DNA from: Bilabrum cf. latius
Lineage: Eukaryota
Length of the DNA: 64,000 bases
Direction of reading: 5' to 3'
Assembly: GCA_965178125.1 (NCBI GenBank)
Contig: OZ237735.1
Span: forward strand, 2,604,001-2,668,000
Shown here one piece after another: positions 2,857-25,271 of this stretch. Made by a program: the position numbers and the translations under genes. How positions within the stretch are numbered: position 1 is the stretch's first letter; each line of letters starts with the position of its first letter. Below the pieces are notes generated by a model. That model saw nothing but the letters and a program-made list of their open reading frames with translations, did not search any database and was not told the DNA's origin.

Positions 2857-3043
2857 TCGAATTGTGGATCGTTCTATCTTGGCAGCCGTACGCGCAAATT
2901 GAGATCCATCTCTGCCTAGCCTTTGCTCAATCACCATGGTATCCTAATTCAACAAAACATCCGACACATGTTCTTGTAGCCAGATTGACGATCGTGTTCG
3001 CAATCTCGCTTAGACGCCCACAGGCTTGGCCCGGTCTGTCCCA

Positions 3044-5746: not shown

Positions 5747-8700
5747 TCATTTTCCATATGATTCATTCGACTTGCCGTGGTCCGCCCCTGAATCGCTCTG
5801 CTAGGCCTCCGGCTGCCAGGACGAAACTCTGGCCATCGAAACGGCACCAAGGCCGCCCGCCTCCATCCCGGCGGCCCCGCCTGCAATCGGGCTAGTTGCG
5901 CCGCTCAGCACCTTGCTAGTTGCAGCGCTAATGCCCTTGCTCTGCGTCAGGGCTGACCGCAACTCATGGAGCGAGATGGCCCCGTCCCCGTCCTGGTCGA
6001 TGGCAGCCACTAGCTCGCCCACCTCCGACGGTGCCAGCTGCACACCGGCTTGCGAGAGTAGCCCGTTCAAGTCTTCCGGGCTCAGCAGCCCGGAATGATC
6101 CCCGTCTGCCGCCTCGAAGAGCCTCGAGATCGACACGCCGCCGCTGGCCATCGCATCTGCCACTCGCGCGATCAGCTGCCTCCTCGCCCGCAGGTGACCC
6201 TCATCCCTAGTTGTGAACAGGGTCGACAGCGGTGTCCCGGCCCACGAGGCCCTGGGCCGCTCCCGCCGCCGCTCCACCATTGTCTGGAAGAATCGCTCCC
6301 TGTCTGCAACTGCCACCCGAGACATGGCTCGCAGCAGAGCTCTGACCCCCGATGACGAGTAGTACAGGTCTGCGTTCATCAGCTTGAGCAGAGCGCGGGG
6401 CAGATGTCGGTCGGGCACCAGACGGTTCAGCCTAGCAGCCAGCTCTCGCTGCGGCGCGTCGATCTCCTTCCCTGCACCTGCTGCCGCGGCAGCTCCAGAG
6501 GTAGTCTCCTCTGTGCCCCCCCCCACAGGGGGCAGGTCCCCCCCCACAGGGGGCAGGTCCCCCCCCACAGGGGGCAGGTCCCCCCCCACAGGGGGCAGGT
6601 CCCCCCCCACAGGGGGCAGGTCCCCCCCCACAGGGGGCAGGTCCAGCACGGTGCCACTGGCAGGCAGGTATACCTCCGCCGACCGCGCCACACCGATGGC
6701 GTCCGGTGACTGCTCCGACAGCGGCGCGCCGCTCCCATTCCGCATGGCCCCGTGGAGCATGCGTCGGAGCGCCGCCGCATGCGCGAGAGGCACAAGCATG
6801 GTGGCTGCCCCGTCGTGAGGAGTGGACCCTGCGTCCGCCCCCCTCTGCGAGGGCGTCTACCCCACCCCGAGCATCGAGGGGGACCGGAATCCATACGGAT
6901 CGCTTGCCCCTTGCCCGCTCCCCATCGCAGCAACGGGTCCCTTAGACGTGGTGTCCTCCACCAGCTCCAGTGGCGCGGCTGTGCTCTGGTCGGGGGCACC
7001 TCCCGGCAGCGCCACCCTCACGGCCACCTCTGCGAGCTTGAGGCGGAAATCAGGCTAGAACACGATGCGTGGGGGGGCCCAGCCCCTGCTGATGAACAGA
7101 TCCTGTCCAACGGAGGCAAGGGGCGACTGGTCCTGGTGCGGCTGCCACTTGGCAAGGGAATGGAAGTGGCCGGCGGAGGCCTCGATCGCATCGGCAGCGG
7201 CCGCCTGTAGCCTGCCAAGCGTTGCCTGCTCCTACTCGGTCAGGCCACGGGGGGTGCCATCGTCCCCGCCGCTCTTCGACTCGCTCGTGCCTGCGCCTTG
7301 GCTGGCCTGCTCGCTCAGTACGGCCCTCAGACGAGCCCGCTCGGCCTGCTCCGCGGCGACCGCAGAAGCAGCCCGAGCTGCCGCTAGCACCGCATCTAGG
7401 TCCGCGGGGCTCCTGTCACCTAGCTTCACGTCGGCTGCGGCATACCACTTCATGTGCGTGACCTGTTTCTGCTCCTCCTTCTGCTCTTCTTGCTCCTTTT
7501 GCGCCTCCTTCTCCTGGATCATGTTCTCGTCCAGCCGTCGAGCTGCTGCACGCTGAGCCGCGAGCAACTCGTCCTCCTTGTCCTCTTTGCCGGCATGCAA
7601 GCCACCGGCAGCAGTGACACCCTGATGCTCTTTCATTCGCGCCTGGCGCTGTTCTTCCCTTTGCTGCTTGGCCGCTTGCGCCCTCCTCCGTATCTCAGCC
7701 AGGGCAGCCTCGGACGACGGCCTGACGAACTGGTTGACGCCCTCAAGTTGCTGCTCCAGCGACTGCTCGAAGGGCATCCCCTCATACTCCTCCCCGGGAT
7801 CGCCAGGAGCGGCCTCCCCCTTGAACGAAAAGTCCACGTCCTCGCGGAACACAGCTAGCGCGTCCTTCAAGGCCTCCTGCGTGCGAGGTACCTCACCCTC
7901 CCTTGCGTCTCTGCGCCGCACGCCGCCGTGGGCCAGCAGCAGGTCGGCGAGGGCGCTCTTTCTCCACACCTGCTCCAGGTCCTGCTGCCTCAGCTGCGCG
8001 TGCTGCAGCCTCTCGTGCTCGATGGTGTTGCGAGTCAGCCATGCAAGCACAGACACTGGGACTGGCTCGGAACCCCACAGCGAGCCCGCCGACCTCCTGA
8101 CCAGCCCTTGGATCTCGGGGGTCAGCAGCAGCTCCACCGTCTGACCCTTCGCGATGCCGCGCATGCGCCAGGCCGCTTGACTCACCGCGCGCACGTCCGA
8201 ATCCTTGCCTAACGTCAGCAGGGCGCGGGCGGTTGGCGCCTGCGCCAGGTCTGCACCGACGCAGTGGCTCTGGTCGTAGAAGCTCGTCCGCTTGGAAGGG
8301 TCGATGCCCACCTCGGACAATAGCTGCGGCCTGGGGTTCCCTCGCACCAGGATACGCTTGTCATCGTGCCGGTCAAAGTACACCACGCCATCCATGCCCT
8401 TGAGACCCTCCTTCAGCAGGAAGCGAGCCACCTCCTCGTTGTCCATGCCAAACACCAGCGCCCCGCAGTCTATGAGCGCATGGTACGGTGGGTCTGCCCT
8501 TGCCACTGCACGCAGCAGCCCGCGCACGGTCCAGCCCTCCGCATCTGCCACCCCATCGCCTGCGGTTGCACCGCTAAAGCCGGGCAAGTCAGCCATGCTG
8601 ACCACCTTGGGGTCGGTCAGGACGTGTATGATGCGGCCCTCCGAGCCCCTCTCGAAGCGGCAGGGTCCCATCGCCATCGGGGTCAGGTCGTTGGCCGTGC

Positions 8701-11700
8701 CGCTAAACCCGAATCGGACATCAAAGAGCGTGTCAGAGCCCAGCTCCTGCGCACTGGCCGAGATCTTTGCCTCTCGGTGCGAAGTCACCGTGTTGTACAC
8801 CACCGTCCGCAAAAAGTGCTCAATGGTCGGGACGTGGTATTGCAGGAGCCGCCAGGCCTCGAGCACGTGCGTGGGCTCCTCCACCTCGAGAAACTCCAGG
8901 CTGGGCACGCGAGGGAGCCCTTTGTGCGCCTGCCGGAGCGTCTCGTCGTCGAGGTCGCGGGTGTCCAAGCCAGCAGCCGCCGCCACGTCCAGAGAGCTCT
9001 GCCTGCTCACAAGGGTCGGCAGTTCGTCCTAGCCATCTGCTTCCGTGCTGTCGCCCGCCACAAGCGGCTCTGCCCCGCTGGAAGGCTGCCTGCTCATCGT
9101 TGCACTCGGCGCCCTGCCGCCTCGCGACGCGCCCCGAAGGCTGATGGCGCGGACGGCCACGGAAGCCGACCTCTGCGAAAACGCCTCGGCCAGCCGCCCG
9201 AACTTGCCCGTCCACTCCTCTCCGGCGCCGGCGATCCAGCTCTGGAAAAGCTTCCTCGAGGCCCTCTCCTCGTAAATACCCGGCTCTCGCTTGAGCGAGC
9301 TCTTGAGGTGCCGCAGCAGCACACGGATGTGCCTGAGCTGCAGGCCCTCCTGTCTGAAGCCAAGGTACGTCAACGAGATCAAGGCATCAACATGGGCAAA
9401 GTCAGCGGTGGGGGAGGGCACGTCCTTTGCCAGGAATGGCACCGCAACGAGGCCTCGGCGCTGGGCGCCCTGCGACAGCCCGCTGCTCATGGCATCGGAG
9501 TTCTTCGGCATCTCGGAATCCCTCAGGAGACCGTATGTAACTCGGTCGATCTTGCTGAGCACGTGAGGCCCCACCGAGGACACCCACTCCCTGCAGAGCA
9601 GCAGGATCTCCGTGGACCTTTTGCCCAGAAGTGCAAGCACCGCCCGTCTCTGCGGCTTGGTGAGCATCCCGCCTTGGCTCGCACCCAGTACGAAGGATAC
9701 CACGCAGCGCTGCGGCACTGGTCCTACCATGGTATCGCCCGCCCGGGGCCGAATGAATCGGTTCAGGCCTGCCTTAAGCTGCGCGAGCTCCTCTGATGAC
9801 ATCGATTCCTGACCGGCCTGCGAGGGACTGGAAGCATCAGCATCAGCATCGCCATCCTCGCGGAGCGGCAAGCCGCGGACCGCCTCTGTCACGGCATCAT
9901 CGTACAGGCTCTGGCTGGCGCGATCCGCTGCTAGTGCACCGTCCAACTGACTCGCCTGCCCCCCCTCCTTGGCCTGCTTCTGCCTTGCAGAGAGCTGCAC
10001 TTCTGCGCTGCGACGGACACCAGACGCGGCCTTTGTGAGATCTGACCTCACGGCATCCAGCGCGGATGCGCCGACAGCACCCATGAGCTGGAGGGCTTGC
10101 ATCATCTGTGCCCCCTTCTCTCCCAACCGCCCGATCGGCAGCTGGCTCGCGGCAGCTAGTGCAGCGTCCGACTGCCCTTGGACTGCTTGAAGCACCTGCT
10201 TGGCAGCCGAAACCGAAGCATCCGCGATGATTGACGCCGCCTTGCCCCAGTACTCCACCGGGATATCGTCCTGCACCTGCAATAGGAGAGAGGCTGCATC
10301 GCTGACGTCTCCCACGTCCTTGACCGCGTCCTTGAAGGCCTGCTGCTCCTCCTCCTGCGGGGTCTGCAGGCGGTTCCTTGACCGGAGCCACCAAGCCATC
10401 CAACGAGCAATTGCGTGTCCCAAGTGCTCCTCGTAGAAATGCCTCTGCAGCAGGATCAGGTGAGGCGACACCTGCAAGGCCCGCTTGCGCAAACCAAGTG
10501 CAATCGTGTCGCGGATGGGCATCTCGGCGGGGTTGATCTGGTTCTTGCTGCGCGACTTGGCCTCGCCCTGTGAGCTGGCACCGCCGCCGCCACCGATAGG
10601 CCCGAGCCCGAGCATCTCATCCCCGCCCACTGCCCCCAGTTCGGCATCGGGGTCGAAGTCCTCATTGCCCTCGGCCACGCCGTCAGAAGCAGGACCGGGG
10701 GCAGCAGGGTCCAGCGACCGGGCTCCGCTCGAACGCCCGGCTGCAGCGTCGGTGGCCCGGCACAGCACGTCCAGGATTGCAATCGGCAGCTCCCAGCGCT
10801 CCGGCCTCGGCTCTAGGTTCTTTTTGCTCGAGATGGGGTAGTTGCACTCGCTGGTCATGCTGTTGAGAAGGGCGTCAACCTCGTCCATGATCACGAGGCC
10901 CTTCTGCGCGGGGCTGAACATGTCAAGGATCTGAGCCAGCTCCTCGGCAGCCTTGGCGTGCTGCTCGGAGGACTCGCCTGTCGCGCTGTGGCGGGGAGTC
11001 TTGCCGTCCGTGCCGACGCCCTTTCCTGCTGCCTCGATGAACACGAGCATGAGCGACTTGATCGAAGTCGGGTCGCTCAGCACGATGCCTCCGCATGCCT
11101 GGGTGTCCTTGAGCTTGCGCCTCAGTTTCTTGAGCTCCCCGATCCCCTTCTCCTCAACAAATCCTCGGTTGAACTGCAGCTGGATGATGCGCTTGGGAAT
11201 CACGCGCGTGAACCGCTCGTACAGCACCTGGGCCGTCTGCGGGATGAGCGCTGCCGGAGCCACCTGCGTGACGAGTGTGTTCCCGTCCGCCAGTAGGAGA
11301 CTAGCCAGCGGCCCGATGGCGGCCGTCTTGCCAATGCCCATGAGGGCGCTGTAAATGCTAGAGGGGGAGTTCTTCCCGATGGACACGTCATCAGGGGACA
11401 CCTCCCTCCTGGCCTCGGCAGCAAAGCTGTCCACAAGCTCGACCTGTCTCTGTCGAAGGATCCAACCAAACAGGAACTCAAACACGAGGTACCGCGTGTC
11501 GAACACCGCCCCTCGAGAGTGCGAACCACCCGCAGCGCCTTCCGGTTCCGCAAAGGTAAGAGACCCATCCGCCTCGCTTGCTGCCACCCCCTTGGTGTAG
11601 TGCCTCACAGCCGACACCGTGGCAGCCAGCCTCTGGCCCTGCTGCAGCAAGCGGTCCGCTTCGTCAGCCTGAAGGGCTGTGCTCCTGCTTGCTAGCTTGC

Positions 11701-14700
11701 TTAGTTTCCTCTGCATTGACAGCGCCATGGCGATTACTCGGTTGCACTGGGAGATCCTAGAGGCCCGAAGCATGGCCACAACAACGCCACGCAGAATCGC
11801 CTTGGCTTGGGGACGACTGAGGGTCGGATTCACGGCTCGCAGGTCGGTCACACCGCGGCTGGACAGCGCGCAAGACATGAGGTACTCGTGCTCCATGAGT
11901 GCGCGGCTGCCTGCCATGCGCTCCAATTGCACTTGCACTGCGGCAGTTCTGGGACCACTCTCGGGATCCTGGTTGCCGAGCGAGTTCTGCCGACGAATGC
12001 ACGCAGGCCTAGCACTCGCTGCAGCAGCGTCAGACCCGGCGCCGCTGGCCGGCGGTACGGTTGGCGTTGACCCGCCCTCGCAGCCGTCCGCGGCCCCTGC
12101 TTCTTGCGAGTTCGCCGCGGCAAGGAGCTTTGCCATGGCACCGCGCAGGGCGGCCGAGTCTCTGGCTCGCACCCGGCGCACCTCGCTCACCAGCTGGCCG
12201 ACAGAGGACGCAGAGGAGCCTGCGTCCACTTGCAGCTGCGGTGGGCCCTTGGGCCTCCACGTGCTGCCCGTCTGCTTGCAAAGGCACTGAAGCTGCGGTA
12301 TGCGCTGCCCAGCCCAGACATCGGCAAAGTCTTCGCACTCCTTCTTCATCCTGCCGAGCACCCGTTGGCCCACCACGTCTCTTGGCTCTCCCCCGTGCCC
12401 CTCTTTCAGATCGAAAGGAAGCTTGCCCTGGGGCGCCGTCTCTCCGATGTCCTGCGGGGCAACGGTGGCCATGAAACGCCTCCACACGGCCTGCAGTGGC
12501 CTGCAGCCCAAAGACAGCACCTCGTGGTCAGGCAGGCTGGCTCCGAGCCTCTCGTCCATCTCATCGTCGCCGTGCCCTTCGGCAGGGCATATTTGCTGCG
12601 GCGGCGCGCGCGTGTCGGATGCAGTTGGGGGCTGTGGTGGCACCATGTCGGCACTCACCACAATGCTGCCTGCCGCACGATCAGCGTACTGGCCAGCGAC
12701 TCCGGACTTGCCCACCGAATCGAGTCTTCGGTGGTGCGCGTCGTTCACTCGAACGCTGACCACACGGACGACCCGATCGGGAGCGTAGGCAAACACGCAA
12801 GGGAAGTACTCCCCGGGCGGCACTCGCTTCAGCACAATCTTGGCTTCATCTGCGGCGCTCTCGCCCCCCGATGCGCCGCCGCTGCTGGCAGAACGAGGTA
12901 CTCCCCCTGGGTGCTCCCCTGTCGCAGGACCGACCCTTTGCACGGCCATGATTCCCGGCACTGTGCCATCGAACAGGTCAAGCAGCATGCGGAACCGGGT
13001 GCCTGGGTGCACCTGATTTGCCGTTGGCCCGCCCACCTGCCTCCCATTCACGCTGCCCTGGCCATTGAAAGCCCGCAGCAGGGCGCACCCGTTCGGACGC
13101 ATGTGCGCAGCAGTACCAATGTGCATGGGCCCAAACCCAAACAGTGTGCCCTCGTCCCCCATGTTGTCCTTAAGCAGCTCAAAGTCGACGCTCATGCGCC
13201 CTGCCTTGATACCAGTTTCCAGGTGCACGGCGGCTTCCTGTCGCTACATGCCAGCCAATCCGGTCTTGATGGCACCCAGCGAAATTACTGGGGCAGTATC
13301 GTCGTCTTTGTCACTGTCATTTGCTGCTGTCTGAGCTTTGGCCCTGTTTACGATGTGCACAGGTCCTACAGCAGTGTCTAGATCCACGGTCCGAGACACA
13401 GCGACCCAGCCTTGGTCCTTGTCTGCTAGCTGCGACACCATGGTCTCCATCCACTCATCACCCTTCTTCTTGCCTGACGCCGACGACTCCCCGCCTATCT
13501 TGCTCAGGTCCTCTTTCCCATCTGTGACCAGCCTCACCCGAACCTTGCTGGAGGTACGCAAGAACACGCAAGGAAAGCGAGCATACTCGGTGGAGATGCC
13601 GCCGTCTACCAGCTCGAAGCCCTTGCTCTCCGCCGTGCGCATCCACAGCCTGCCGAACTTGGCCTCGCCGTCGCCACCACCGGTAGTTCTTCCACCCTTC
13701 CCAGCGTCAACCCCGGCAGCGGCCCCCCCAGTAGCCTCGCTGCCCTCTGCGGCTGCTGGCTCGCCGCCATCGCCGGCAGTAGCTGCAGCATCTGGCTCAT
13801 TTGCAACTTGCTTCACCTTCGGAGTCATGTCAAGTACAAATTCCGCAACCGCGCCGCTCTTGAGCCGGCGTGCCGCTCGCACCCCACTGCCCTCCTTGCC
13901 GTCAGCAAGTACTCTGCCGTTCGCTAGCTCAACCACTGTAGCCCGCACTGCGTCGGGAATCTCAGGAGCAGGAGAACCCAGAGAGGCTCTTCCCACTCCC
14001 ACATACACTGCATCTCCTGATGACTCGTCTGTGTGGCCCAGCTTTGGCGCATCTACGTGCAACCTCCACCGCAGCTGCTTGCCCTCGGGCGCGCCCTGAC
14101 CCATTCGGCAGCTGGCTGCCAGCACGCTGGGCTCCTTGCCCTTGGACTCGAGAGTCACAGAGCTGCGGTCGTGTTCTACATGGTCGCCCAGGAACCCAGT
14201 CCAACTCGCGTTGCTCATCAGCGAGATTTTCTTCGTGTCGGGCAGCTCAGCCGTCGCAATGGCTTCCTAAGTAGCTTGTTTGCCCGCATCACCGCCTCCG
14301 TCGCCGCTCGATCCGGACACCTTTGCGCCGGGAGCTTCTGCTGCCAAGCGTTCGTCCTCCACTGCAGTCTCCAGCGACAGCAGCACCACCTTGATTGGCG
14401 ACGCACCGGTCGCAACCTGCTCATCGGTCATGGCGCCAAGGACGCATGGATGCCAGGTCACACTGGCAGGTTCCCCTGCACCAGATAACTAGGCACTCGC
14501 AGGGATTACACCGCGGGCCACTGTTTGCTTGCCAGAACCGCTCTTCTCAGCGATGATCAGGTCGCCTGGCTTGCTTCCGTCACCGAGGCGAGCAGTGACA
14601 AGGTACTCGCCCCCCCGTTTGAACTGATCGATGTCCACTGGACTTCCAGTTCCCTGTGCGAACAGCACCTTTGACGGCGACGAAAATGCGACAGCTTTAC

Positions 14701-17700
14701 AATCTGGTGAGTCCGCCTTGCTGGAGCCGAGAGTACCCGGCGAAACGCCGATGGCGAGTGGCACAGCCTCACCGCCCGAACCTGCCACTGCCAACTTGAA
14801 TCGGATGACACCCTTGGCAGCCCCTTGCGTGGACATCAAGGCGCATCCACCGTTCAAGTCAGCCTGGTTATCGCCGGTCACTGAAGCGTACCCAAAGCCA
14901 CTCGCAATGACAGACCCGGGATTCCACTTCGCATCAGCAGTGACAAACTTTGTCGTGTCCACCGCTGTTTCTGGATCAGAAGTCTCGTCCTCTCCCGTGG
15001 CATGGTCGCCGTCTGCATCTGGCGCGTCCGAACCGGCCCCGACCAGTTCCACCTTCTCCAGTCTGGCCTCCCCGGGGCCCTAGAATCCAATCCCGGGCGC
15101 GTAACCCCCCGACGGCTTCGCAGCTGGCAAACGGCCGGCCGGAATCAGCGGTACAAACGTCCCCGACTCGTTGTTAACGCAGATGTGCATGCTGGGAGAC
15201 TTTGTACCGTCCCCGAGGTTCATGCGCAACCTGATCAGCTGCCCCACCTTCCGGACCCATTCATGCTGCTGCTGCGCGGCCAGCACCACTCCCTCCAGTA
15301 GCGCCTCCCCGAGATGCGTGATCAGACCACTGAAGCGGCCATCACGGTGCGCCACGCTGGGGAAATCACCCCCCTTCCGACGGAAGCCAACCACAATGGG
15401 AAGCAAAGAGCGCCGGTTTCCCGCCATGGTCCTAAACTGTGCCTCCACTGTGCCGCTGGTGAAGTACCGGCGGGTGCAAACGTGCCCTCCAGACCGGGCC
15501 AAGTCCATCAAGATGGCTTTCTTGCCTTGCTTGTCGACGTGGAGCAGACCTAACGTGCGAACTTCGTGCATGTGAAGCCTGTTCTGGGCTTCATCATCTT
15601 CCATGGCGGCTTGCACTCTAGCAATCTCCGCCTGGGTGGCCTCGGCCCCGCTCGTGCTGCCGCCTTCGGTAGATGTCTCGGCACGCACCATCGTGACTCT
15701 CACGCCTGGACCATAGCTCAAGACAGCGGGGCAAGCTGTCAGCGCGGCTTGCTCGTCCCCCTTGCGCCGCAATGAATCACCTTTGGCCAGCACAAAGCTG
15801 CCCAGCGAAGTGCTCACTCGCAAGATTGGTTCCTTCTTGTCGCTAGAGTCGCTGCCGGCGGATGGAGGCGGGGGTACTTTCTCTCTGTGCTCCGGTGCGG
15901 GCTTGCCTTCCGGAGTTGGAGCTGCAGCAGACGCTGGTGCATCTGCAGCAGCATTGCCATCATCCAACAGTGACGCAGCGATGGCCGCTTCGAGCTCTGT
16001 CGCATCGCTGTCTGCGCTGGGTGCCCGCGACACATCGCCACCGGCTGACGCGCCCCCAGCGGGCTGGCTGATTTCAGGCTGCGGGCCAGACGCCTTGGTG
16101 TCTGCGCCAGGAGGCCCGCACCAATCGAGAAGGAACTCAATGTCCTCGCCCACCGGCAGGCGCAGCCTGGAGTCCACCGAACCGGAGGTTGAAGGGCCTT
16201 GCCTGCGGAAAACGCGGCCGTTGATTGCGTTGCACAGCACGCTAGATCCACCGATCTGGGTCGGATCCATCGTGTTTCTATCCGCTGCTTCTGCTGTTGC
16301 AACCCCAGCCATCACGCATGGAAGCACATCTCCGGCTGCAGCTCCAGTCTCCGCGTCAATTCGCAGAGTCCACCGGACCCTGCCCGTAGCGCCCTCGCCG
16401 AACCTCGCCCGGATGATACCCCGGCTCACCTCGGTCCGGATGGCACGAGAAGGTGCACCAGCTGCACCAGCTGCACCAGCTGCACCAGCTGCACCAGCTG
16501 CACCCGCGGGACCCGACCAGCCCAACTAGGAGTGTGCAACGGGTGTCCAGCCGCTGGGGCTGGTGAGATGCTGCAGCACCTCGCGCACGCGCCGCTCCTC
16601 ATCTGATTTGCTGAGCGCCGCGGCTACCCGTGCCGACTCAAACTTGGCCCTTTCCTTGTCTTCTTTCTCCTTCTTCTGCTTTGCGAGAAATTCATCGTCG
16701 TACCCGGCGATGGGAAGCGGCTTCTCGGATCCATGCAGGGTGATATGCTTGTCGCTGGCTGCCTCCAGGGCATGCTGGAACTGCTGCTTGACAGCCTGTG
16801 CCCAGCTCTGCATCTGTGTCTACGAGCTGGAGTTCCTCAGCCGAAGCTCTGCATTCGGTGCGCGCATAAACGACTGCGGTACCCCTCTCTTGTACGGCTC
16901 ACCGCTCTGCTAGATTCGTGCAGCGATGGAGGCTCCGTGAAGCGGGGCACCAAACGACTCCGACCACGAGGCCAAGTCAAAGCCGGCGGTCGGGTCGTCT
17001 TTCTTCACGCCCTTTCCTTCTGCGTCCTCCTCGGTCAGCACTAATGCGCGTGCGATAAGAAGGGCCAGCTAGGTGCTGCTGTCTCCCCATTCTGGAACAA
17101 GCACCATCTGCTGACTGCCAACCGCCATGTTGTACAGCGCGATTGCTCGCTTCGCGGGGCGATTCTTCCAGTATTGCTCCAGCTCCTTCTCGCACTCTTC
17201 TCCAGTGAGCTTGTCTCTCCCAATAAAATCCGCAGGGTCGTAGACGGCAGTGCGAGGGAAGCCACTAAACTTGAGGCCGGCGATCCCGCCTTTCATGAAT
17301 CCCTCGGAGCGTTTCTCCTGATCAACCCACACGCTGGACAAGGGCCATCTGGGGGCATCGAACGACTTCTTGATTGTGAACGCGTTGCCCTTAAGCAGCT
17401 GCTCGAGCCTGCCTCTCCGCTCCGCCAGCTTGGAACGCATGCGCGACCCCTGCTCCTCGAGCAGGTCACACAGCGATATTTCGTCTCGCAGTCCGATGCG
17501 GCAGCTTGCGCTCACGTGCCCCTGCTTGGATACGTACTTCTTGTACTCCTAATCAGCCTTAAACGGCAGCTTAGCGGGATTGTATCGAAGCGCGAGAGCC
17601 AGGTGCAGCATGCACGCGTGGAAATCAGGCGAAGCGTCCCTCGGATGGGTGGGTCCGTCAAACGCCAGGCGCAGGCCGGTTTCGATCGCCTCGGAACGCA

Positions 17701-20700
17701 CGCCGTGCTCGCCCCCGGAGAGCCCAAGCGTGTAAGACTCTTCCTTTCCGAACGCCCTGTCAGTCTGCAGCGAAGCCATGAGCTTCTTTGCGTCCTCGTA
17801 CTGACGGTGCACGATGTTGCTCACCAGCAGGTAGAGAGTCGCAGACACAGAAGGAAGCTGCAAAAAGGCCCCCGACACGTTCACAGGGAACACGTAGGCC
17901 CGGTTGCGCACCTTGTTCTCCCATCCTGGTCGGCCCCTGAAGTACTGCACGTAGGTCGTGAACGGGTGCCCCGTGATCGAGGGTCGCAGCATGGGGTGCG
18001 AGGGAACGAACACGAACAGCTCGCTCTGGTCATTCTGCAGAACTAAGCTCTGGGGCAGGCCTCGCAGCAGCTTCTGCGGAGACAGTGCGTCGAGCGCGGC
18101 GCTGGGCTCCTCGCCCGACTCGGCCCCATCCAGCAAGAACATAGAGGTGCGGTCGGACAGCCGCAACACAAGGGAGCCGTCGGCACTGCGGCTGGGCAGC
18201 AGACCAGTTCGAAGCCTGGGCAGCTCAACGCAAGCCAGAGGAACCGACTCACCTCGAGAGACCAGGCCAGCAAGAGACATGGGGCCCAAGATCGGGGCAC
18301 AAGAGCTTGTGCCGCTGGGACCATGCCCCGTACCACGGCCCTGCGCATCCGCGGCAATCGGTGCTGTGCCCTCTGCAATGCGGCGCTGCAGCATTTTGAT
18401 CGGAAGGGTAGCCCATGGGAGCACGAAGCCAGCGTCCTCCACGCGAGCGACGGTCCTCAGCACCTTTGCGAGATCAGCGTCGCTGCCCACCGACTGCGGG
18501 GCGACAAGGATCCTCGGCAGCTTGCAGTTGGGGTCTCGCAGCACAGCTTCCGCTGCACTAGCCCCCACCCGCTGCAGCTACCTGCCCAGCGACCTGATAT
18601 GCGCACGGTGCGACTCGCCGTACAGCGCGTTCGCAATGACTTGGACCGCACCGTGCCACGGGGTCCCAGCGTATACGGGTACCTCAAGCACGTGCGCCTC
18701 CACAGCCGCGACCGGTCCGTTCCCATCCACGGCCTCGCTGTCGGGTCTTCGAGACAGGTGGATCTCATACACGGCCCCAGGAAGAACCTCTTCTGCGCCA
18801 GCCATCAGGTCGGAGGCAGCCTCCGTTGCTGAGCTGACGTAGGCGGAGCTCTTCGGCTCGCCAACGAGCACAACCCGCGGCGGCGATGATGCTGAAGTGG
18901 CAGACGCCACCGCAGCAGCCATAGTGTCTTCGATCCCATTGCTGGAGTCTATCCTCCACCACTGCACATCCCCACGCAGTAGCGCGCCAGGCACGGCGCC
19001 TTGCAAGAGCGCCGAAGGTACCCAGCTGGCTCGCACGGCAGCCCCGCATCCCGGCTCCTGCCTGCATCTCACGATCTCCATCCCAGGGACCTCCTCGGGC
19101 CCTGCCATGATGTCACCAAGTCTGAAGTGAAGCATGCAGGACGGGTGTCTCGCCAGAGCGTTGTCCCATGGTGCCAGCCCGGTGGGAGCTGCGGCACTGC
19201 CAAAGGTCCTCCCCAGCGACCTCCTCCCGTCCGTGGTGAAAGACAGCACGCGATACACCCTGCGGGCGTACTCTTGAAAGCGATACACCTCGATCATGCC
19301 CAACTCGCCACCCTCGGGGTCTGGCTTCTTTGCCACAATCTCCCGCACATCCCCGGTCCTGGCATCCCGCCACAGAAGCGTGCAGCTGTCGGGTTGGCCT
19401 GCCCTGGCAGCGGCGGACGGGGCTGAGTCATCGCTATGCTTAGCAAAAACCTGCATGTTCTAGAGGGCCTGCTCCGCTAGCTACCTACGCTTCTTGAGGT
19501 CATCCGCCCTCGTGTCCTTCTGACCCTCGCCGGGCCCCGGCGTGGCTGCCTCGATCAGCTCCTGCAGAAGCGTGTCCTCCAACAGCGACTGCAACCAGGC
19601 CTCTTCTCCCGTCAAGCGCGTTCCTTTCGCGCTCTCGGTAGACCCTTGCTTCTCGACCCGCTGCAGGATTTTGGCCATCTCCTCCTCGTCCGCCTGCTCT
19701 CTGTCCGCTGCAACCTCTTTGATGGCACGGCCGGACAGCACCGCCATCATGTCGATGCTAAAGTGCACCTGCCGGTCATAGCTGTCACCGAGGTACTCAA
19801 GGACGCGCTTGCCCTGGACTTCTATGCCACTGGTGGCCGTGGAAGCGCCAGACGCTTCATTCTAGGCACCACCAGCGGCAGCCCCTCCTTCGTCAGACTT
19901 CTTCTGATCGCCCCCGCCACCCTCGCCCAGCGACATGCGCAACGCCTCTGCCAGCTCTGGGTCACCTCCATCTACCGCTGCCTAAATCTGGGACCGGATC
20001 TAGGCGTTGGGGTCTTCCGCCGCACCGGCATTAGAGGCCTGCGCACCGGCGTCGTTGGGCGCCGACGGCTTCCCCATTGACGCTTCCATTGCCTTTCGCA
20101 GCTGCTGCTCTTCCAATGTCTCACCAGGATACGCCTTCAACCCGCTCTGCTCAGAAGCTTCCCGCTCAGCCTTTGCCTCCTTCTCTTTGGCAGCCTGCCG
20201 CTCGACTGCGGACGCTGGTCCCAGCCACCTCGGGTATCCGTGCGGGGCCAGCTGCCCGTACTGCGTGAGTGGGAGCGGCTCCCAGTGGCGAACGACCACC
20301 TGCCCATGGGCGGTGACCTGCGGCTCGCTCGAGACGATCTCCAGCTCCGTGACGTTCTCGTGCCGCTGCGTGATAGCGCAGTGGGGCACGGAGCCTCCGA
20401 AGAAGGCGCGGAACGCCGACGTCTGTGCCGTGCGGAATGGCACAGTTTGGATCTAGTCGCCCGACTGCAGGCGCAACGTGGCCGTCTGCAGCTCAAAGTA
20501 GTACTTCTTGTCAGCGTCGACCACGATGCCGCTCGAAAAACCGGCATCGTCTCGGTTGAGTCGGCCCCCAACGGCCCCGATCTCATTGCAGACCCTAACC
20601 GAAGCACCGCCAGAACGCTTGGCTCTCTGCAGCTGCTATGCGAGATCAAAGGCAGAGCTTCCTCGCCCTAAAATCGCCGGTGTTCCGTGGCCGTGCGCGA

Positions 20701-23700
20701 CTGCGTCGCGGGCTGCCTCTACATCGCCACCGGCAGCGCGCAGGGTAGCCCTCAAGCCCCACGCGGCCTCTGGATCGGCACCCAGCGCTTTCTGCAGCGC
20801 GTCCAACCTAGCGTCCTCGCTTGCCGCCCCGTCCCCAGGGACCAGCCCGAACTGCACCTTGTCGTTTTCCAGAATCACGCGGAGCGCGATCGTGAGCGCC
20901 TCCTGGCGGTCCGTGCACGAGGCCACTGCGAGCCAGCTCATAATCCGCGGCATCACGCGGTGCAGCGCCTCGAAGACGTCGCCTTCCGCGGCGAAGATGC
21001 CGCGCCTGAGATACTTCGGCTCGGCGTCGCGCACGTCTAGCTCGCCCACATCTGCTGTCCGCATTGTGCCGTTCACCAGCTTGAGACGAGCGGGAATCCG
21101 CAACGAGCGGAGAACCTGCTGCCCGGGCACGTGCCAGTTGCCGAATGCAACGGCCGCGCCCACGCACCTTCCCACCTGCACGCTGTCCATGGCCTGCAGC
21201 GGGCAGCCGCTCGCTGCGATGACCTGGTGCGCAAACACAGCGCTCCTCAGCCTGTTGTCCCTTCTCGACACCGCGTCCTGCATAAAGAACGCAAACACGG
21301 GCGAGCAGTCGTCGTCCAGGACACCGCGGAGCCCCGCTGCCAGCTCCTCCACAGCGCCGCGCAGACCCACCGTGGGCCCACACGGGTGGTCACAGGGCAG
21401 GCCAAGCACTGCGTGCGCGAACGACTCGATCCTCGATACCAGCCGCACGCAGAAGAAGAAGACCGTCACATGAGCGGGATCCGCGTTGTTCTTACACAGG
21501 TAAATCACCTGCTGTAGCAGCCTGCGAGCAGGAACGAGAACCGCAGCCGGAGCGCACGCAATCTCGTGCATGAGGGGGCCCCATGGAGTGGCCAGGCTGC
21601 CTCCGTCACGCTCTCGCGCGGGAAACTGGTCGGGAACCGCGCTGCCCTACGAAACAGCGAGCGAATCCAGAGGGTTCACTTCCTACTTCTCAGCGGCAGC
21701 GTCTTCTTTCTGCGAAGTGGCATCACCTGCGCCCCCAGACGAGCTGCCCGCCCCCGATGCAGCAGCAGCAGCAGCCTCACCGCTGGGCTTGGCCATCGTG
21801 GCTGCGCCGGCATTAGGTGAGGCGATGCCGGAGCTATCGCCCGATCCCGCGGGCTGGGGCATGGTGAGGCCCTCGAAGACAGCGTGCCACAGCAAGTGCC
21901 TGATTTCTTGGTTGAAGAGAGCGCCGGAGCCCTCCTGCGACATGAACTGCAGCAGCAGCGGGATGCGCACGTGCGGTTCGCAGAGGAACGTGAGCATCCG
22001 CTCGGCGTGGTCCTCCGTGAGAGCGCCATCGAAATCGTCCACCGCCCGTGCGAGCACCACGTCGTCCTCGTCCGGTGGGGATGACGGTTTCCGGCTCCGA
22101 ATCCCGTGGGCCAGGGGATTGGTGCATCTGACCCTCGGCTGCCTGTAGAAGTGGATTGGCTCCTTGGACTGGAAGATACCCACGATGGCCCTCACGCTCT
22201 GCTCGTTCTTGTCATAATTGGTCAGTCGCACCTGGAACACCTGCCTCTCGTGCATGACACCGCCTGCGCTCGGCTCTGCCACGAAGCTCTGGTACGTTGG
22301 TTCGCAGGCGACGCGGGCAGCGAGGGCTGCCGTGACCATTGGCGTGTACTCGGGACAGCGCCTGTAGTCGCCCGTGAAGTCGGTTCTACCCTCCATCACG
22401 AGCTCCTCCGTCGAGGCGCTGGCGTTGAAGTCGTTCAGCGCGTTGAGCAGGTAGACCTGCCTGGAAAAAGAGGCAGGCAAGTCCTCGGTACTGACCTTTC
22501 CCCTGCCAAACATATCTTCCTCGTCCAACCCTGCCATGCTCTGGTAGTGGAACAGGTGCATCCTCCGAATGCCGCCCTTGTCCGGCAGCCCGCACATCCG
22601 AGCCAGCACAGCCACCTGCTCTAGTGCCGGAGTCGTTTTCGCCAGGGCCAGAGTCGGGTTGTCTCGGCGCCTAGAGACACCGCCGCCGAGCAGGCCGGCG
22701 ATCCCTCCAGCGTCCCCTTCGTCGTCTGAGTCATCCGAGTCGTCACTGCTGCCGTCGCTGTCCTCGCCATCGGCATCCTCATTGCCACCCCCCTCAGCCT
22801 GGGCATCGCCCCCAGTACCAGTACCCGTGCCAGCCCCGAGCCGGTCATCTCGGTGCATCGAATCCAGGAACTCCACGTCGAAGAAGGGGGTCTGGGCCAG
22901 GGCGCGCTGCCTGCGGTCGTGCTCCACGAGCCGGGCCCGGCACACGGCCACCTCGGGCGTGCAGACGTCCCACTCTCCGCAGATAGACTCGAGGGGTTTC
23001 CTCGGAGTACCCAGGTCCAGTCGCAGTCGCTGCCCGTGGTACTTTTGCAGGTCGCTAAACGTGGACGCCGCTTCAGCCGCACGTCCCTCCAAAAGGTCGG
23101 CCATCGCACTCTCGCCTGGCTTGAAGAGGGCGCGCGTGGCCGCGTCGATGAACGCGCATGCCGCAAGCACCGTCACCGACTTCTGCGCGGCGGCGTGTGA
23201 ATCGAAGCGTCGCACCAGCGCGGTGGCATTCAGATAGGCTCCCAGCAGCTGCTGCAGCTGGCGGAGCATGCTTCGCACATCGTCAGCGGGGAGCTTGGAG
23301 CCCCTGGCCCACTCGGTGCGATCGAAGGGCAACGCCTGGGTGAACAGCCGGACCAGGGCCTGCTGCAGGTGGTAGGCCCATGCTATCGTGGTACCGGAGC
23401 CTTCCAAGAGATTGGCGATCGCAGCCGCGGATTTGACCGCGTCGCGTACCTCTTCGGCCGTGCGGCAGAGGGTGCCGGGGATGGACAGAAAGTCCGGAAC
23501 CGTCGAATCGGTGGGCTTTGAGGCCTTCCCCTTGAAAGGATCCTGGTCCACCTGAGCCGCCAAGAGCTCCATCCCCTTGAGTGGGGCGTACTGCACCGAG
23601 GCATCCGACTTTCCGTGCCAGCCCAGCGGTTTCACCCCCGGGTCTGTCCAGCCCGGGTCCTGAGACGCGGGCACGATCGAGTGTTGGATCTCGGCTAGCT

Positions 23701-24987
23701 CGGCCTGGATCTCCTCCGCCTCTTTTTCGCTGATGCTCCCCGCCTTAAGGTTCTTAATTGCGTGGTGGGCCGTCTGCTTGCAGCCAATGCCGATGAGGTC
23801 TCGGTCGCTGGGATGCAGGCCCAGCCCGGGAGCCTTGTGCGCGTGCACACCGGAGCCATCCTTCCTGGCCTTGAGGTCCTCTTTGACCATGAGCATGTAG
23901 CACGCGCGGATATAGAGCGTGAATCGCTTGCACTCCTCTTTGCTCATCCCGCGCAGACGCGCGTAGAAGCGCAGGGCAGCCAGCGATGACCTGTAGTAGC
24001 ACGTGCCTGCCCTCTGCGGGGTGATCCAGTCTCCAGACTTGGCAGAGTCGCTCGTCTCGTGCGACCGCGCGGCAAACCGTGAGGGGTCGCCGTCACAGAT
24101 GTAGGGCAGATACAGCTAGTAGTAAAGGTGCGGCCCGTTGCGGTCGTGCGCCTTGGATCCGTTCCGCATCAGGCACCAGATCGCGGCTGGGTCGATGACC
24201 CTGTTCCTTGGGATGCCGTCGAGCCGCATGGCGCACTTGGCCTTGTTCCCTGCCAGGCCCACCTTGGGCCACTCAATCTCGGCCGAGGCGTGGTGTCCAA
24301 GCCCCTGACCCGTGTTCACCACCACCACGGCAAAGTGCTCCTCGGATTCTCGCAGGAACACGGTCATGATGGCGTGCCCGCCGCTGGACCCCATCCAGCA
24401 AGTAGAGTGCATGTAGCACCCGCCCACGGCGAGCCCCTTCAAGCGATTGTGCACGCGGCGAACCCGCTCATGCAGCTTCATGCTGTCTTCATTGTACGTG
24501 CTCGCGGACTCGTGCAGCCGAGCAGCGACGTCCGTCACGATAGGCACGCTCACGCGCCAGCCCCGCTTAGGCGCCTCCGCCGCGACCCGCTCCACGACCC
24601 CGTGCAGATATCGCAATGAGAGCAGCGGCAGGCCACCTTCTAGTTCAGTCTCATCGCTGCGATGAGCGCGGTGGGAAATAGAATGGCGATCCAAAATGCG
24701 CGCACCAAGCAACTCCAGAACGCGGGGTGTTTGTCGCATCAGAGCGACCACCAACAGGTTGTGCTCACATGTAAGGGTCCCCAAACTCTCCTCTGCGATT
24801 TGATCAAATGGTTGATTGGAAAAGACAACGGTAGCAAAGGAAGATCGACGCAAATAAGAGCACCTATTCCGCAAGATCGGTCGCCCTTGTGCAACTTGAA
24901 TATTTTCTTACGCATACGCTCCTGTTCGCCACAGCGCAAAGTCATCAACACTACCTGATATGCGCCTTTCTGCTTCAGACTTGCCAT
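5747..24987 (-). CDS. Giant (~6,350 aa) DUF3638/DUF3645-family protein: putative N-terminal cysteine protease, UBA/UIM motifs, SPRY-like modules, P-loop/helicase-like core, C-terminal EF-hands
   Basis: Sixteen listed minus-strand ORFs (low ends 5801 to 24116) are all in one frame. I translated every gap and found only TAG (25 in total), ending at TGA 5747-5749. Motifs: [68 protein letters not shown]-hands [13 protein letters not shown] and [13 protein letters not shown]. The start (ATG 24987 with an intron ending at 24793) is tentative. Confidence 0.85.
6516..6644. repeat. 21-bp coding minisatellite, about 6 copies (DLPPVGG on minus strand)
   Basis: Tandem unit ccccccccacagggggcaggt is directly visible. 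Confidence 0.95.
16454..16504. repeat. 9-bp coding tandem repeat (gcaccagct)n encoding AGA repeats
   Basis: About 5.5 perfect copies visible. Confidence 0.9.
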
Positions 24988-25271
24988 CTGCTGACATGTC
25001 GGCCCCTGCAGGTTATGCACGGCGGCTGATTTCCACCGGGCACTGGTAAGTTCCGCTCGACCCGTGTCGTGGCGCCGCGGCGCCACTGGCTCCGACACGA
25101 TTCAACAAAAGTAGTACGCATCCATTTCACTGGCGGGGCGTGTTCGAAGGAAGAAGTTTAGCGCTAGCTGTATTGATTCGTTTGTTTGGGCTCGTTTCAG
25201 CTATGACATGAAGCGCTGAGTTGGTGCCCTCGGTATATTTCACCACTTGCTTCTTCTGAAACGTCTTGACG

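Follow-up and report, generated by a model that had tools for sequence, protein, structure and literature searches.

Giant proteins that combine the domains DUF3638 and DUF3645 form a widespread family that is already known but uncharacterised, and no functional study of such proteins was found in the literature searched, as judged from titles and abstracts. Giant protist members include AB1Y20_019635 of Prymnesium parvum (P0009, 6363 aa), A0A0G4G6D4 of Chromera velia (P0007, 5757 aa), P0169 of Chrysochromulina tobinii, P0008 (6981 aa) and P0011 (6246 aa), in which a conserved middle scaffold is found together with DUF3638, DUF3645, a RecA2-like part and often EF-hands. Precomputed Pfam annotation assigns further ubiquitin-related or protein-binding modules to giant relatives: SPRY and thioredoxin to P0009, MIB_HERC2 to P0007 and P0008, UBA to P0005 and P0006, and ankyrin to P0008 and P0011. 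To the fungal DUF6606-DUF3638-DUF3645 proteins, such as IQ07DRAFT_681560 of Pyrenochaeta sp. (P0174, 3122 aa), precomputed Pfam annotation likewise assigns both DUF3638 and DUF3645. Giant-virus proteins (Harvfovirus, Hokovirus, Hyperionvirus, Fadolivirus and Yasminevirus), named DUF3638 or ubiquitinyl hydrolase 1, are represented by BFVD models of 307-1486 residues, which may be parts of longer proteins.

In the window, by which we mean the whole 64-kb stretch of DNA that was analysed, the minus strand encodes a predicted protein (P0001) in which both DUF3638 and DUF3645 exceed the Pfam gathering cut-offs. Among 893 candidates scored there were 12 homologues of 3580-6981 aa, including proteins of Cafeteria, Chromera and Prymnesium. 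The best full-length homologue is FNF27_03064 of Cafeteria roenbergensis (P0002, 4139 aa, 'ubiquitinyl hydrolase 1' in UniRef), with P0003 and P0004 as related proteins. Between aa 29 and aa 6260 the BLASTP blocks against P0002 keep a colinear order: they begin in the N-terminal head (34% identity, aa 29-386), continue in DUF3638 and DUF3645/RecA2 (39%, aa 5029-5703) and end in the EF-hand region. The two proteins share the GEFGDP motif and a His-Asn-Gln-Cys set. In contrast, P0002 is 2,200 residues shorter, has no counterpart of aa 2427-4089, does not contain the UIM-like stretch (aa 1489-1614), and is annotated in the standard code. Identity to the core of the giant protist relatives is 30-39%, but their accessory modules differ in kind and position. 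The fungal P0174 is more remote (core identity only 26%, E 3.7e-14), and its N-terminal DUF6606 gave no profile match to the head (hhalign probability 0.3%).

These sequence comparisons place the predicted protein in the giant DUF3638/DUF3645 family (UniRef label 'ubiquitinyl hydrolase 1') as a new member. That single proteins of other protists align with it colinearly agrees with the preliminary description of this DNA, which had proposed one multidomain gene with TAG as a sense codon. The gene, its code and the family assignment, taken jointly, appear practically certain. For the whole proposal, a three-exon gene that reads TAG as Gln and encodes a giant DUF3638/DUF3645 protein with the functions suggested below, we estimate a probability of about 0.6.

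The N-terminal head domain

The amino end of the protein is predicted to form a separate domain:

23648..24646, minus strand: cysteine-protease-like domain with helical cap, aa ~32-364 of P0001

Modelled as a segment of its own, as the preliminary description had suggested, the head gave an AF2 model with pLDDT 81.4 and pTM 0.79, and its only strong match among solved structures was to the Legionella pneumophila effectors LegA15/AnkD and AnkH. The VIA Z scores were 18.6 for LegA15 (7xql/7kj6), 17.3 for AnkD (7ew8) and 16.0 for AnkH (6mca), with the next match at only 7.2; the alignments to the effectors covered 242-259 residues at an rmsd of 3.3-3.8 and 10-14% identity. This link is structural only, as a search of PDB sequences with the A1 profile (E<=10) did not find LegA15, AnkD or AnkH. 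The giant-virus models have the same head fold, with 7 viral matches at E<=0.001 (Harvfovirus A0A3G5A476: Foldseek E 2.6e-10, TMq 0.57).

Candidate catalytic residues, predicted from the columns of alignment A1, are H122, N142, Q242 and C247. The four occur together in 33/48 rows; 14 rows lack the His, 11 of which lack the Cys as well, and the Gln stands five residues before the Cys in 45/48 rows. In papain-like enzymes a Gln ahead of the Cys has an oxyanion-hole role. In the AF2 head model combined with A1, GGHA stands at the beginning of strand 97-106, strand 111-117 ends with NTG, and helix 223-238 starts with QRAGTC. The AnkH report (PMC6712400) describes a clan-CE-like fold whose triad runs His, Asp/Asn, Cys, with rGHa, D/NRg and GNC as motifs; the His begins a strand, the strand that follows ends in the Asp, and the Cys precedes a helix. 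The head has the same order and similar short motifs. Unlike the protein studied here, the Legionella effectors have ankyrin repeats at the N-terminus and lack an ATPase, and whether their activity is protease-like or that of a GTPase is disputed. The earlier claim of a protease-like N-terminus is borne out by the modelled fold and its conserved His-Asn-Gln-Cys set.

The chemistry is a separate question. The head could be a nucleotide-binding or -hydrolysing module, or a silent binding module, in which case the protein would be a giant NTPase scaffold and the 'ubiquitinyl hydrolase' label an annotation artefact; we regard this as rather unlikely. LegA15, the closest solved structure, has been reported as an atypical GTPase using the same conserved Cys for hydrolysis (PMC9757750), with a Kd for GTP of 1.38 uM, and protease activity of AnkH in vitro was not detected by its authors (PMC6712400). 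No peptidase activity is reported for the family or for the structural relatives of the head in the portions of the literature consulted. The distant family members P0005, P0006 and P0007 keep the head domain but have neither the His nor the Cys, so the common function of the family cannot depend on that chemistry, and H150, present in 48/48 rows of A1, is more strictly conserved than the proposed catalytic His (34/46). On the other hand, the joint retention and loss of His and Cys is usual for a catalytic dyad with pseudo-enzyme offshoots, the Gln is placed as a papain-like oxyanion-hole Gln would be, motif order and placement fit the clan-CE description, and UBA domains are present in P0005 and P0006. 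Weighing these observations, we give protease-type chemistry in the head somewhat less than an even chance.

Motor region and accessory modules

The carboxy-terminal part contains the following features:

10754..11365, minus strand: DUF3638 P-loop domain, aa 4459-4662 (PF12340, E 7.4e-22, 78.2 bits, cut-off 31)
within DUF3638: Walker A (MGIGKT, aa 4467-4472) and Walker B (DEVD, aa 4619-4622)
9368..9463, minus strand: DUF3645, aa 5093-5124 (PF12359, E 7.3e-11, 41.7 bits, cut-off 25)
7988..8710, minus strand: RecA2-like (helicase C-terminal-like) domain, aa ~5344-5584 (AF2 pLDDT 76-93)

A DUF3638 P-loop with DEVD, followed by DUF3645, had been named in the preliminary description, and both Pfam families were found, together with a Walker A of the GxGKT type; on the sub-region alone PF12340 reached E 1.2e-23. 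The Walker motifs, the DExD-type Walker B included, are shared with SF2 motors such as DEAH HrpB, DEAD-box Hera, NS3 and SNF2-type enzymes. In the RecA2-like part the family consensus contains GFSGT, HxxGxD and QxAxRMRGIxxGQ; the QxxxRxxRxGxGQ pattern resembles helicase motif VI. In the wide VIA search HrpB was the best match to this part (Z 8.1 over 143 aa, rmsd 3.6), a score that the tool itself classes as 'middling'. Among the 50 rows (Z 6.1-8.1), 42 named SF2-type helicases or translocases. Foldseek matches were weak (best E 0.037), and the RecA1/DUF3638 half stayed unfolded in the model (pLDDT ~30). Unlike SF2 motors, the region matched no Pfam helicase family even at E<=10, and ~720 residues, DUF3645 included, separate Walker B from GFSGT. 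For the proposed helicase-C-like domain, the model hints at a RecA2-like fold.

Outside the motor the candidate modules are:

20699..20818, minus strand: UBA candidate of the preliminary description, aa 1308-1347
19928..20113, minus strand: two UIM-like motifs, aa 1543-1555 and 1593-1604 (UIM_2, E 1.2, 10.1 bits, cut-off 21)
15965..16000, minus strand: third UIM-like motif, aa 2914-2925 (UIM_2, E 1.3, 9.9 bits, sub-threshold)
12530..17392, minus strand: ~1,600-aa insert, aa ~2450-4070, with no aligned counterpart in 12 distant homologues
13034..13219, minus strand: SPRY-like module candidate, aa 3841-3902 (phmmer/PDB 4qt6_A, HERC1, E 0.0085, 17.8 bits)
7463..7513, minus strand: E/Q/K-rich stretch, aa 5743-5759, read from the sequence
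6517..6644, minus strand: perfect 21-nt tandem repeat, 6.1 copies, DLPPVGG x6 (TRF 100% matches, score 256)
5951..6127, minus strand: EF-hand pair, aa 6205-6263 (EF-hand_7, E 2.9e-7, 31.2 bits, cut-off 30)

The UBA candidate was not confirmed, with no Pfam match at E<=5 and no PDB sequence match at E<=10, and the UIM proposal found sub-threshold matches to Pfam UIM_2 alone. In the insert, where the preliminary description had placed SPRY-like modules, neither a Pfam family nor an internal repeat was detected, and one of about five candidates had a weak PDB match, to 4qt6, which we take to be the SPRY domain of HERC1. Residues 2449-4026 fall outside all BLASTP blocks against P0002-P0013; GC3 of the insert is lower (0.64-0.67), and 8/25 TAGs lie in it. 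The E/Q/K-rich stretch had been called a coiled coil, and an EQEQE-type stretch is conserved at this site in the consensus of A2 and A3. Contigs of sequencing runs X1, X5 and X6 break at the tandem repeat.

The EF-hands were recovered as predicted. EF-hand_1, _5 and _6 also exceeded their Pfam cut-offs, the A3 profile matched calmodulins (E 1e-22 to 1e-25), and the pair is conserved in P0002, P0004, P0005, P0008, P0011 and P0012. By sequence the second loop is canonical and the first has Asp at position 12.

Reading frame, genetic code and gene model

With TAG taken as sense, the ORF listing gives one continuous minus-strand ORF of 6330 aa (5747..24739) with 25 TAGs. From stop to stop the frame extends to 24907 and has 6386 codons, including 25 TAG, no TAA and a single TGA, which ends it; over this stretch each of the remaining five frames contains 36-132 TGA and 5-23 TAA. 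Given the trinucleotide frequencies of the window, a run of 6386 codons free of TAA and TGA has a probability of ~1e-40, and the frame described earlier, with TAG as its only internal stop-type codon, stands. No frameshift occurs across the 19 kb. In each of the 13 blocks of 500 codons GC3 exceeds GC1 and GC1 exceeds GC2, and the full length therefore appears to be coding. Translation with the standard code would split the frame into 26 pieces, 18 of at least 60 aa and 14 of at least 100 aa, which makes the earlier figure of about 16 fragments a fair one, and the gene of a close relative is already public in such pieces (P0161-P0163).

Nuclear codes in which UAG alone is reassigned have been described (NCBI table 15; Panek et al. 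2017, PMC5304391), and the usage here is of this type, with TAG as sense and TAA and TGA as stops. The best named matches of two genes of the window are from stramenopiles, and the source is best described as a stramenopile-like protist with a GC-rich genome; a UAG-only nuclear code in a stramenopile was not found in the literature searched, judged by titles and beginnings of abstracts. At least ten further ORFs of the window use TAG in frame, and its long ORFs end in TGA (10/11) or TAA (1/11), never in TAG. In the aligned parts of neighbouring genes, three of six TAG sites are opposite Gln of the best PDB homologue, and the remaining three are opposite N, E and P. In the Josephin neighbour, a TAG at aa 17 corresponds to a Gln that JOSD2 and ataxin-3 have five residues ahead of their catalytic Cys, and a second one is opposite Gln at aa 118; in the MYG1 neighbour a TAG is opposite the Gln of the DHH-Q motif. 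Close relatives of the giant gene cover six of its TAG sites, with Q at three and E, R and S at the others. Taken together, the sequence comparisons show a nuclear code in which TAG encodes Gln and TGA and TAA remain stops.

It seems very improbable that TAG is a context-dependent stop or another residue, and the predicted protein one of several products. Such ambiguity could be read from the position of all 25 TAGs in variable columns (8/25 covered by distant homologues, with mixed residues), from the highly conserved 1514-aa CPSase ORF of the window, which has no TAG, and from the failure to find tRNA genes in the window. However, the Josephin and MYG1 Gln are functionally conserved, TAG is about as frequent in frame (25) as off frame (26-41), no long ORF ends in TAG, and domains conserved in homologues lie downstream of many TAGs.

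The preliminary description had proposed a single exon starting at 24987. This is nearly so, since the last exon makes up 99.4% of the CDS, but there are two 5' introns, and the ATG is at 24997:

24912..24997, minus strand: exon 1, 86 nt, ATG at 24997-24995, in-frame stop 5 codons upstream
24793..24911, minus strand: intron 1, 119 nt, GTAAGA...CGCAG (CT..AC on the plus strand)
24769..24792, minus strand: exon 2, 24-nt micro-exon encoding the family-conserved GEFGDPY
24657..24768, minus strand: intron 2, 112 nt, GTGAGC...CGCAG, containing the misleading ATG 24739
5747..24656, minus strand: exon 3, 18,910 nt, with all 25 in-frame TAGs and the TGA stop at 5749-5747

In contig record 23 of run X6, position 24656 abuts 24769 and position 24792 abuts 24912; the two segments skipped in this way are both GT..AG on the minus strand. 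The run is labelled 'RNA? (probably DNA)', and its contigs cannot prove a single 19-kb transcript. On exon 3 they are colinear, with no more canonical joints and no base differences listed; exon 1 is entered by only ~37 nt, so we infer its 5' limit. The CDS (24997-24912 + 24792-24769 + 24656-5747) has 19,020 nt, is divisible by 3 and encodes 6,339 aa. Inclusion of the micro-exon restores GEFGDPY, which is also N-terminal in P0002 and P0004.

Several standard-code genes, or a pseudogene with TAG nonsense mutations, might be suspected from the 26 pieces (table 11) and from the separate public proteins P0161-P0163, but are hardly conceivable given the uninterrupted frame, the codon-position bias in every block, the colinear single proteins of other protists, the TAG usage of the other ORFs and the motif restored by splicing.

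Proposed function

In the product of the three-exon gene, the head would act as a cysteine isopeptidase of the papain-like (clan-CE-like) type, with ubiquitin or a ubiquitin-like modifier as its target. The region from DUF3638 through DUF3645 to the RecA2-like part may be an SF2-type NTPase motor, which would serve in substrate remodelling or translocation, or in positioning the protease, and the EF-hand pair could make the machine responsive to Ca2+. The lineage-specific 1,600-residue insert, whose modules are beta-rich and possibly SPRY-like, would contribute with the UIM-like motifs to substrate or ubiquitin recognition. The preliminary description had envisaged a Ca2+-sensing, NTP-driven, ubiquitin-binding protease machine; its domain content was found in part, and its function is our inference as well. 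If all these parts act together, the protein may be a coupled ATP- and Ca2+-regulated deconjugation machine, which we consider a tentative and somewhat improbable extension of the individual assignments.

Reading frame and genetic code

Listing of open reading frames with TAG treated as a sense codon yielded a single minus-strand frame at 5747..24739, whose translation (P0001) is 6330 aa long and includes 25 TAG codons. Followed from stop to stop, the frame reaches up to 24907 and comprises 6386 codons with 25 TAG, no TAA and one TGA, the latter being the terminal stop. Apart from the terminal TGA, this codon count confirmed the long frame with 25 TAG and no TAA or TGA that had been reported in the preliminary description. 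Each of the remaining five frames over the same stretch contains 36-132 TGA and 5-23 TAA triplets, and the chance of 6386 codons without TAA or TGA, calculated from the trinucleotide frequencies of the window, is about 1e-40. In the giant gene stretch TAG occurs at similar rates in frame (25) and off frame (26-41), which is the behaviour of an ordinary sense codon, and the order GC3 > GC1 > GC2 holds in 13 of 13 blocks of 500 codons.

The other long ORFs of the window encode TTL, Josephin, Bmt2, MYG1, ankyrin, RING, DUF179, C2H2 and CPSase proteins. In-frame TAGs number 0-13 in the long ORFs, ten of eleven having between 1 and 13, and the stops of the eleven ORFs are TGA (ten) and TAA (one), never TAG. 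Examples of ORFs that use TAG as a sense codon are the following.

Open reading frames with sense TAG (examples)
1-2856, plus strand, ORF with TAG as sense codon
25272-26741, plus strand, ORF with TAG as sense codon
27530-29668, plus strand, ORF with TAG as sense codon
40727-45430, minus strand, ORF with TAG as sense codon
60600-63998, minus strand, ORF with TAG as sense codon

The meaning of TAG was read from alignments to homologues of solved structure, in which six TAG sites fall within aligned parts of window genes. TAG at aa 17 of the Josephin protein stands opposite the Gln that precedes the catalytic Cys of JOSD2 and ataxin-3 by five residues, TAG at aa 118 of the same protein is opposite a Q of JOSD2, and TAG at aa 75 of MYG1 is opposite the Q of the DHH-Q motif. 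At the other three sites the aligned residues are N (TTLL6), E and P. In fragments of the giant gene product from close relatives, Q was found at three of the six covered TAG sites (aa 208, 5895 and 6313), the others being E, R and S. Of the 25 TAG sites in the giant gene, 8 are aligned with distant homologues, whose residues there are mixed, so that the codon could not be interpreted from this gene by itself. If TAG is counted as Gln, the Gln codons of the giant gene are 230 CAG, 42 CAA and 25 TAG. Judged from these alignments and from stop usage, we regard it as settled that in this nuclear code TAG stands for Gln and that TGA and TAA are the stops (NCBI table 15 type). A tRNA scan of the 64-kb window detected no tRNA gene.

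The named best match of the giant protein is from the stramenopile Cafeteria, and those of the CPSase protein are all from stramenopiles (Albugo, Cafeteria, Phytophthora, Saprolegnia, Mucochytrium, Aurantiochytrium and diatoms). The literature searched, by title and start of abstract, contained no paper on a stramenopile that reads nuclear UAG as Gln. The highly conserved, fused CPSase ORF (55851-60395, plus strand, 1514 aa) contains no TAG and low-complexity ORFs contain up to 13; genes that are conserved or strongly expressed may avoid this codon.

With the standard code the giant gene is split into 26 pieces. Such fragmentation, which had been predicted, is seen in the close relative, whose gene (Logan contig of 36,478 nt) was called in standard-code pieces of 1053, 552 and 240 aa (P0161, P0162 and P0163) that are 91-96% identical to the giant protein and are stored as separate proteins. 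The largest of them, P0161, matches aa 5244-6329 with 91.5% identity.

Gene model and neighbouring genes

Contigs of four public sequencing runs (X1, X5, X6 and X7) were placed on 5500-25400. A 1196 nt contig of X6 (record 23) covers 23522-24656, then 24769-24792, and continues from 24912 onward. The two stretches that it skips, 112 and 119 nt long, are both bounded by GT..AG on the minus strand, and contigs of the DNA-like runs X1 and X5 are continuous across both. The following gene model, all on the minus strand, was obtained.

Exons of the giant gene
24997-24912, minus strand, first exon, with the start ATG at 24997
24792-24769, minus strand, 24-nt micro-exon
24656-5747, minus strand, 18,910-nt exon

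The exons add up to 19,020 nt, that is 6339 codons and the stop, and an in-frame stop lies five codons upstream of the start. The micro-exon encodes GEFGDPY, a motif that also precedes TELEG at the N-terminus of the 4139-aa Cafeteria roenbergensis homologue (P0002) and of its relative P0004. The gene had been described as a single exon; this holds for 99.4% of the coding sequence, which lies in the 18,910-nt exon, but not for the 5' end, where the X6 contig reveals two GT..AG introns. The long frame's own initial ATG, at 24739, therefore falls within an intron. The micro-exon shows that even for near-intronless giant genes RNA evidence is needed at the 5' end.

A search of public sequencing runs listed no RNA run that holds the stretch; X6 is labelled 'RNA? 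(probably DNA)', and its contigs carry no information on strand, ends or one continuous transcript. They cover 30 of 30 depth bins, with no additional canonical joint and no base difference listed. Among the pieces listed from the four runs none spans the whole giant gene, and the single 19-kb transcript is a prediction. Contigs of all four runs end at both of two perfect, in-frame tandem repeats.

Tandem repeats in the giant gene
6517-6644, perfect in-frame tandem repeat, 21 nt x 6.1, encoding DLPPVGG
16454-16504, perfect in-frame tandem repeat, 9 nt x 5.7, encoding GAA/AGA runs

One contig each of X6 and X7 has a joint 8883->18089, which skips 9,205 nt, has CC..GC ends and a short side of 21 nt; this joint is probably a repeat-induced assembly artefact.

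A Josephin-type deubiquitinase gene (25272-26741, plus strand, Pfam E 6.9e-26) faces the giant gene in head-to-head orientation, with 274 bp between the start codons at 24997 and 25272. A promoter acting in both directions may thus serve this pair of ubiquitin-related genes, both of the cysteine-protease-like type. The region downstream of the giant gene contains a 483-codon ORF (3044-4495, minus strand) without Pfam match; its GYSQGG motif is reminiscent of serine esterases and cutinases, and a hydrophobic stretch and then a Cys-rich tail come after it. Another ORF (45739-47529, minus strand) has one TAG and encodes an array of C2H2 zinc fingers, 13 or more near-identical HECSVCGKAFG... units, that looks recently expanded or homogenised.

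Family membership and domain composition

Both domains after which the family is named scored above the Pfam gathering thresholds, as had been proposed. DUF3638 (PF12340) matches aa 4459-4662 (E 7.4e-22, 78.2 bits with a cut-off of 31; 84 bits on the sub-region), and DUF3645 (PF12359) follows downstream at aa 5093-5124 (E 7.3e-11, 41.7 bits, cut-off 25). A word-indexed search found, among 893 scored candidates, 12 homologues of 3580-6981 aa, including proteins of Cafeteria roenbergensis (4139 aa), Chromera velia (5757 aa) and Prymnesium parvum (6363 aa); several of the giant homologues carry the UniRef label 'ubiquitinyl hydrolase 1'. BLASTP aligned the giant protein with P0002 in eight ordered, colinear blocks that span aa 29-6260, and a similar pattern was seen with P0003 and P0004, relatives of P0002. 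Residues 2427-4089 have no counterpart in the Cafeteria protein and form an insert of about 1,600 residues, and self-BLASTP detected no internal repeat in aa 2441-4090. Gene, code and family membership can be considered settled: the protein belongs to a known, uncharacterised family, equally large members of which are already in public databases. No functional study of DUF3638/DUF3645 (or DUF6606) proteins was found, by title or abstract, in the literature searched.

The P-loop and DEVD motifs claimed for DUF3638 were both located, as a Walker A sequence MGIGKT at aa 4467-4472 and a Walker B sequence DEVD at aa 4619-4622; the family consensus in an alignment of 19 members (A2) is GAGKT and DEVD. 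This consensus also includes GFSGTP, HTTGMD and QGAxRMRGIGxGQ, which we take to resemble helicase motifs. The AlphaFold2 model of aa 4445-5640 has an overall pLDDT of 48.6, with values around 30 in the DUF3638 half (aa 4445-4782) and 76-93 in aa 5404-5584. With the latter part VIA-align retrieved RecA2 domains; HrpB was matched with Z 8.1 (in the 'middling' range) over 143 residues at an rmsd of 3.6, and 42 of 50 rows for the RecA2-like part name SF2-type helicases or translocases. The best Foldseek match of the aa 4445-5640 model was weak (E 0.037), with nothing at E<=0.001. None of the Pfam helicase families ResIII, DEAD, Helicase_C and SNF2 was detected at E<=10 in aa 4381-4700, 5011-5330 or 5331-5600, and phmmer against PDB gave nothing real for aa 4301-5600. 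A profile of a further family alignment (A3) found calmodulin-type EF-hand chains as the best 60 of 593 PDB matches, which would hide any helicases. The helicase-C-like domain of the preliminary description is thus plausible but not firm.

The EF-hands proposed near the C-terminus proved well founded. The pair at aa 6205-6263 exceeds the Pfam cut-offs (EF-hand_7, 31.2 vs 30; EF-hand_1, 27.2 vs 25.4), and its loop 2 is a canonical 12-residue loop.

The modules assigned to the middle of the protein fared less well. Pfam detected no family at E<=0.01 in aa 1-4300 and, at E<=5, only noise and sub-threshold UIM_2 matches. The UBA domain found neither a Pfam match (aa 1301-1800, E<=5) nor a PDB sequence match (aa 1290-1700, E<=10). 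Three UIM-like motifs fit, by eye, the short hydrophobic-xx-A-xxx-S core, but their UIM_2 scores of 10.1 and 9.9 bits (E 1.2-1.3) are below the cut-off of 21, and the assignment was not upheld. A regex and shuffle test of the UIM cores returned one motif as two overlapping matches, equalled in 19 of 500 shuffles, and was too narrow to inform. For the SPRY-like modules there is one weak PDB match, to 4qt6 (HERC1, SPRY domain), at aa 3841-3902 with E 0.0085, but no Pfam match at E<=5, no phmmer match in PDB for aa 2750-3240 and no internal repeat. The predicted coiled-coil stretch is based on composition. In precomputed Pfam annotations homologues carry SPRY, MIB_HERC2 and UBA, which indicates that ubiquitin-related accessory modules recur across the family.

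Head domain and possible function of the giant protein

Of the 245 representative proteins that an exhaustive HMMER search with aa 25-420 detected at E<=0.001, 97 reached E<=1e-10. The query and 47 of the 150 listed matches, mostly the shorter ones, were aligned (A1, 48 rows). The AlphaFold2 model of the head domain has a mean pLDDT of 81.4 and a pTM of 0.79. With this model, Foldseek retrieved from PDB at E<=0.001 Legionella effectors only (LegA15, 7kj6 and 7xql; AnkD, 7ew8; AnkH, 6mca), with E 2.5e-5. A wide VIA-align search gave Z 17.1 and 16.0, the next match being at Z 7.6; in a second look Z values of 18.6, 18.6, 17.3 and 16.0 were obtained over 242-259 residues, and RavZ had Z 5. In BFVD there were seven Foldseek matches at E<=0.001, all giant-virus proteins (best E 2.6e-10), several of them named DUF3638 or ubiquitinyl hydrolase 1. 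DUF3638 proteins of Klosneuvirus-group giant viruses (Harvfovirus A0A3G5A476, Hokovirus A0A1V0SG42) have predicted structures with the head-domain fold.

In the AnkH report the domain is described as clan-CE-like (XopD/Ulp1 type) with the triad order His, Asp, Cys and the motifs rGHa, D/NRg and GNC; one strand begins with the His, the strand after it ends with the Asp, and the Cys precedes a helix (PMC6712400). In our model GGHA (H122) is at the start of strand 97-106, NTG (N142) at the end of strand 111-117, and QRAGTC (Q242, C247) at the start of helix 223-238. In sequence and modelled secondary structure the head domain agrees with the AnkH/LegA15-type description in having the order His, Asp/Asn, Cys with a Gln before the Cys. 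The protease-like N-terminus that had been proposed is supported to the extent that the modelled fold is shared with the AnkH/LegA15-type domain and its cap, and that a candidate H/N/Q/C set can be named.

These residues are conserved in A1 in 34 of 46 (His), 45 of 48 (Asn), 45 of 48 (Gln) and 37 of 48 (Cys) rows, and occur all together in 33 of 48. Eleven of the 14 rows that lack the His also lack the Cys; such joint loss is in favour of a functional dyad from which pseudo-enzymes have branched off. Three findings count against a protease. The fold is that of LegA15, AnkD and AnkH, but AnkH is reported to be without protease activity in vitro (PMC6712400) and LegA15 is described as an atypical GTPase acting through the same Cys (PMC9757750), so that peptidase activity is unproven for the former and disputed for the latter. 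Moreover, the profile of A1 finds none of the Legionella chains by sequence: neither it nor phmmer detected LegA15, AnkD or AnkH in PDB at E<=10, the profile matching designed helical proteins only (E>1) and phmmer with aa 1-700 giving nothing real apart from one low-complexity match (E 0.87). No match to A1 was found by hhalign with P0174, a fungal DUF6606-DUF3638-DUF3645 protein. In the main rival interpretation the architecture is kept, with a head domain that would either handle nucleotides or be silent.

In the mechanism that we infer from domain content, a Cys/His isopeptidase head would act in concert with an SF2-like NTPase and with a pair of Ca2+-binding hands, alongside lineage-specific recognition modules. 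Taken jointly, the data might be read as follows, with a probability of roughly one in five. The giant DUF3638/DUF3645 proteins would form a class of eukaryotic machine that has escaped recognition and is present also in giant viruses, in which an SF2-type motor drives, and Ca2+ gates, a clan-CE-like cysteine isopeptidase head; the 'orphan' cysteine-protease-like fold of AnkH and LegA15/AnkD would have descended from the protist family by host-to-bacterium transfer; and the organism would be the first stramenopile with nuclear UAG = Gln, a code by which such genes would be hidden in standard annotation.

The giant protein is a well-documented family member with a function that can be proposed from its domains. 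New are the gene model under the TAG = Gln code, the link suggested by structural models between the family's head domain and the AnkH/LegA15 fold, and the co-varying candidate catalytic residues deduced from the alignment. Once the code is recognised, 26 pieces become one protein again, among the largest that the genome encodes. For a widespread, unstudied giant family of protists, fungi and giant viruses, a connection is made with Legionella effectors of disputed chemistry, which alone among the relatives of the head domain have solved structures, and a testable residue set (H122, N142, Q242 and C247) is provided. Should the head domain prove to be a ubiquitin/Ubl protease that works with an ATPase and EF-hands, this would be a new architecture among deconjugating enzymes.
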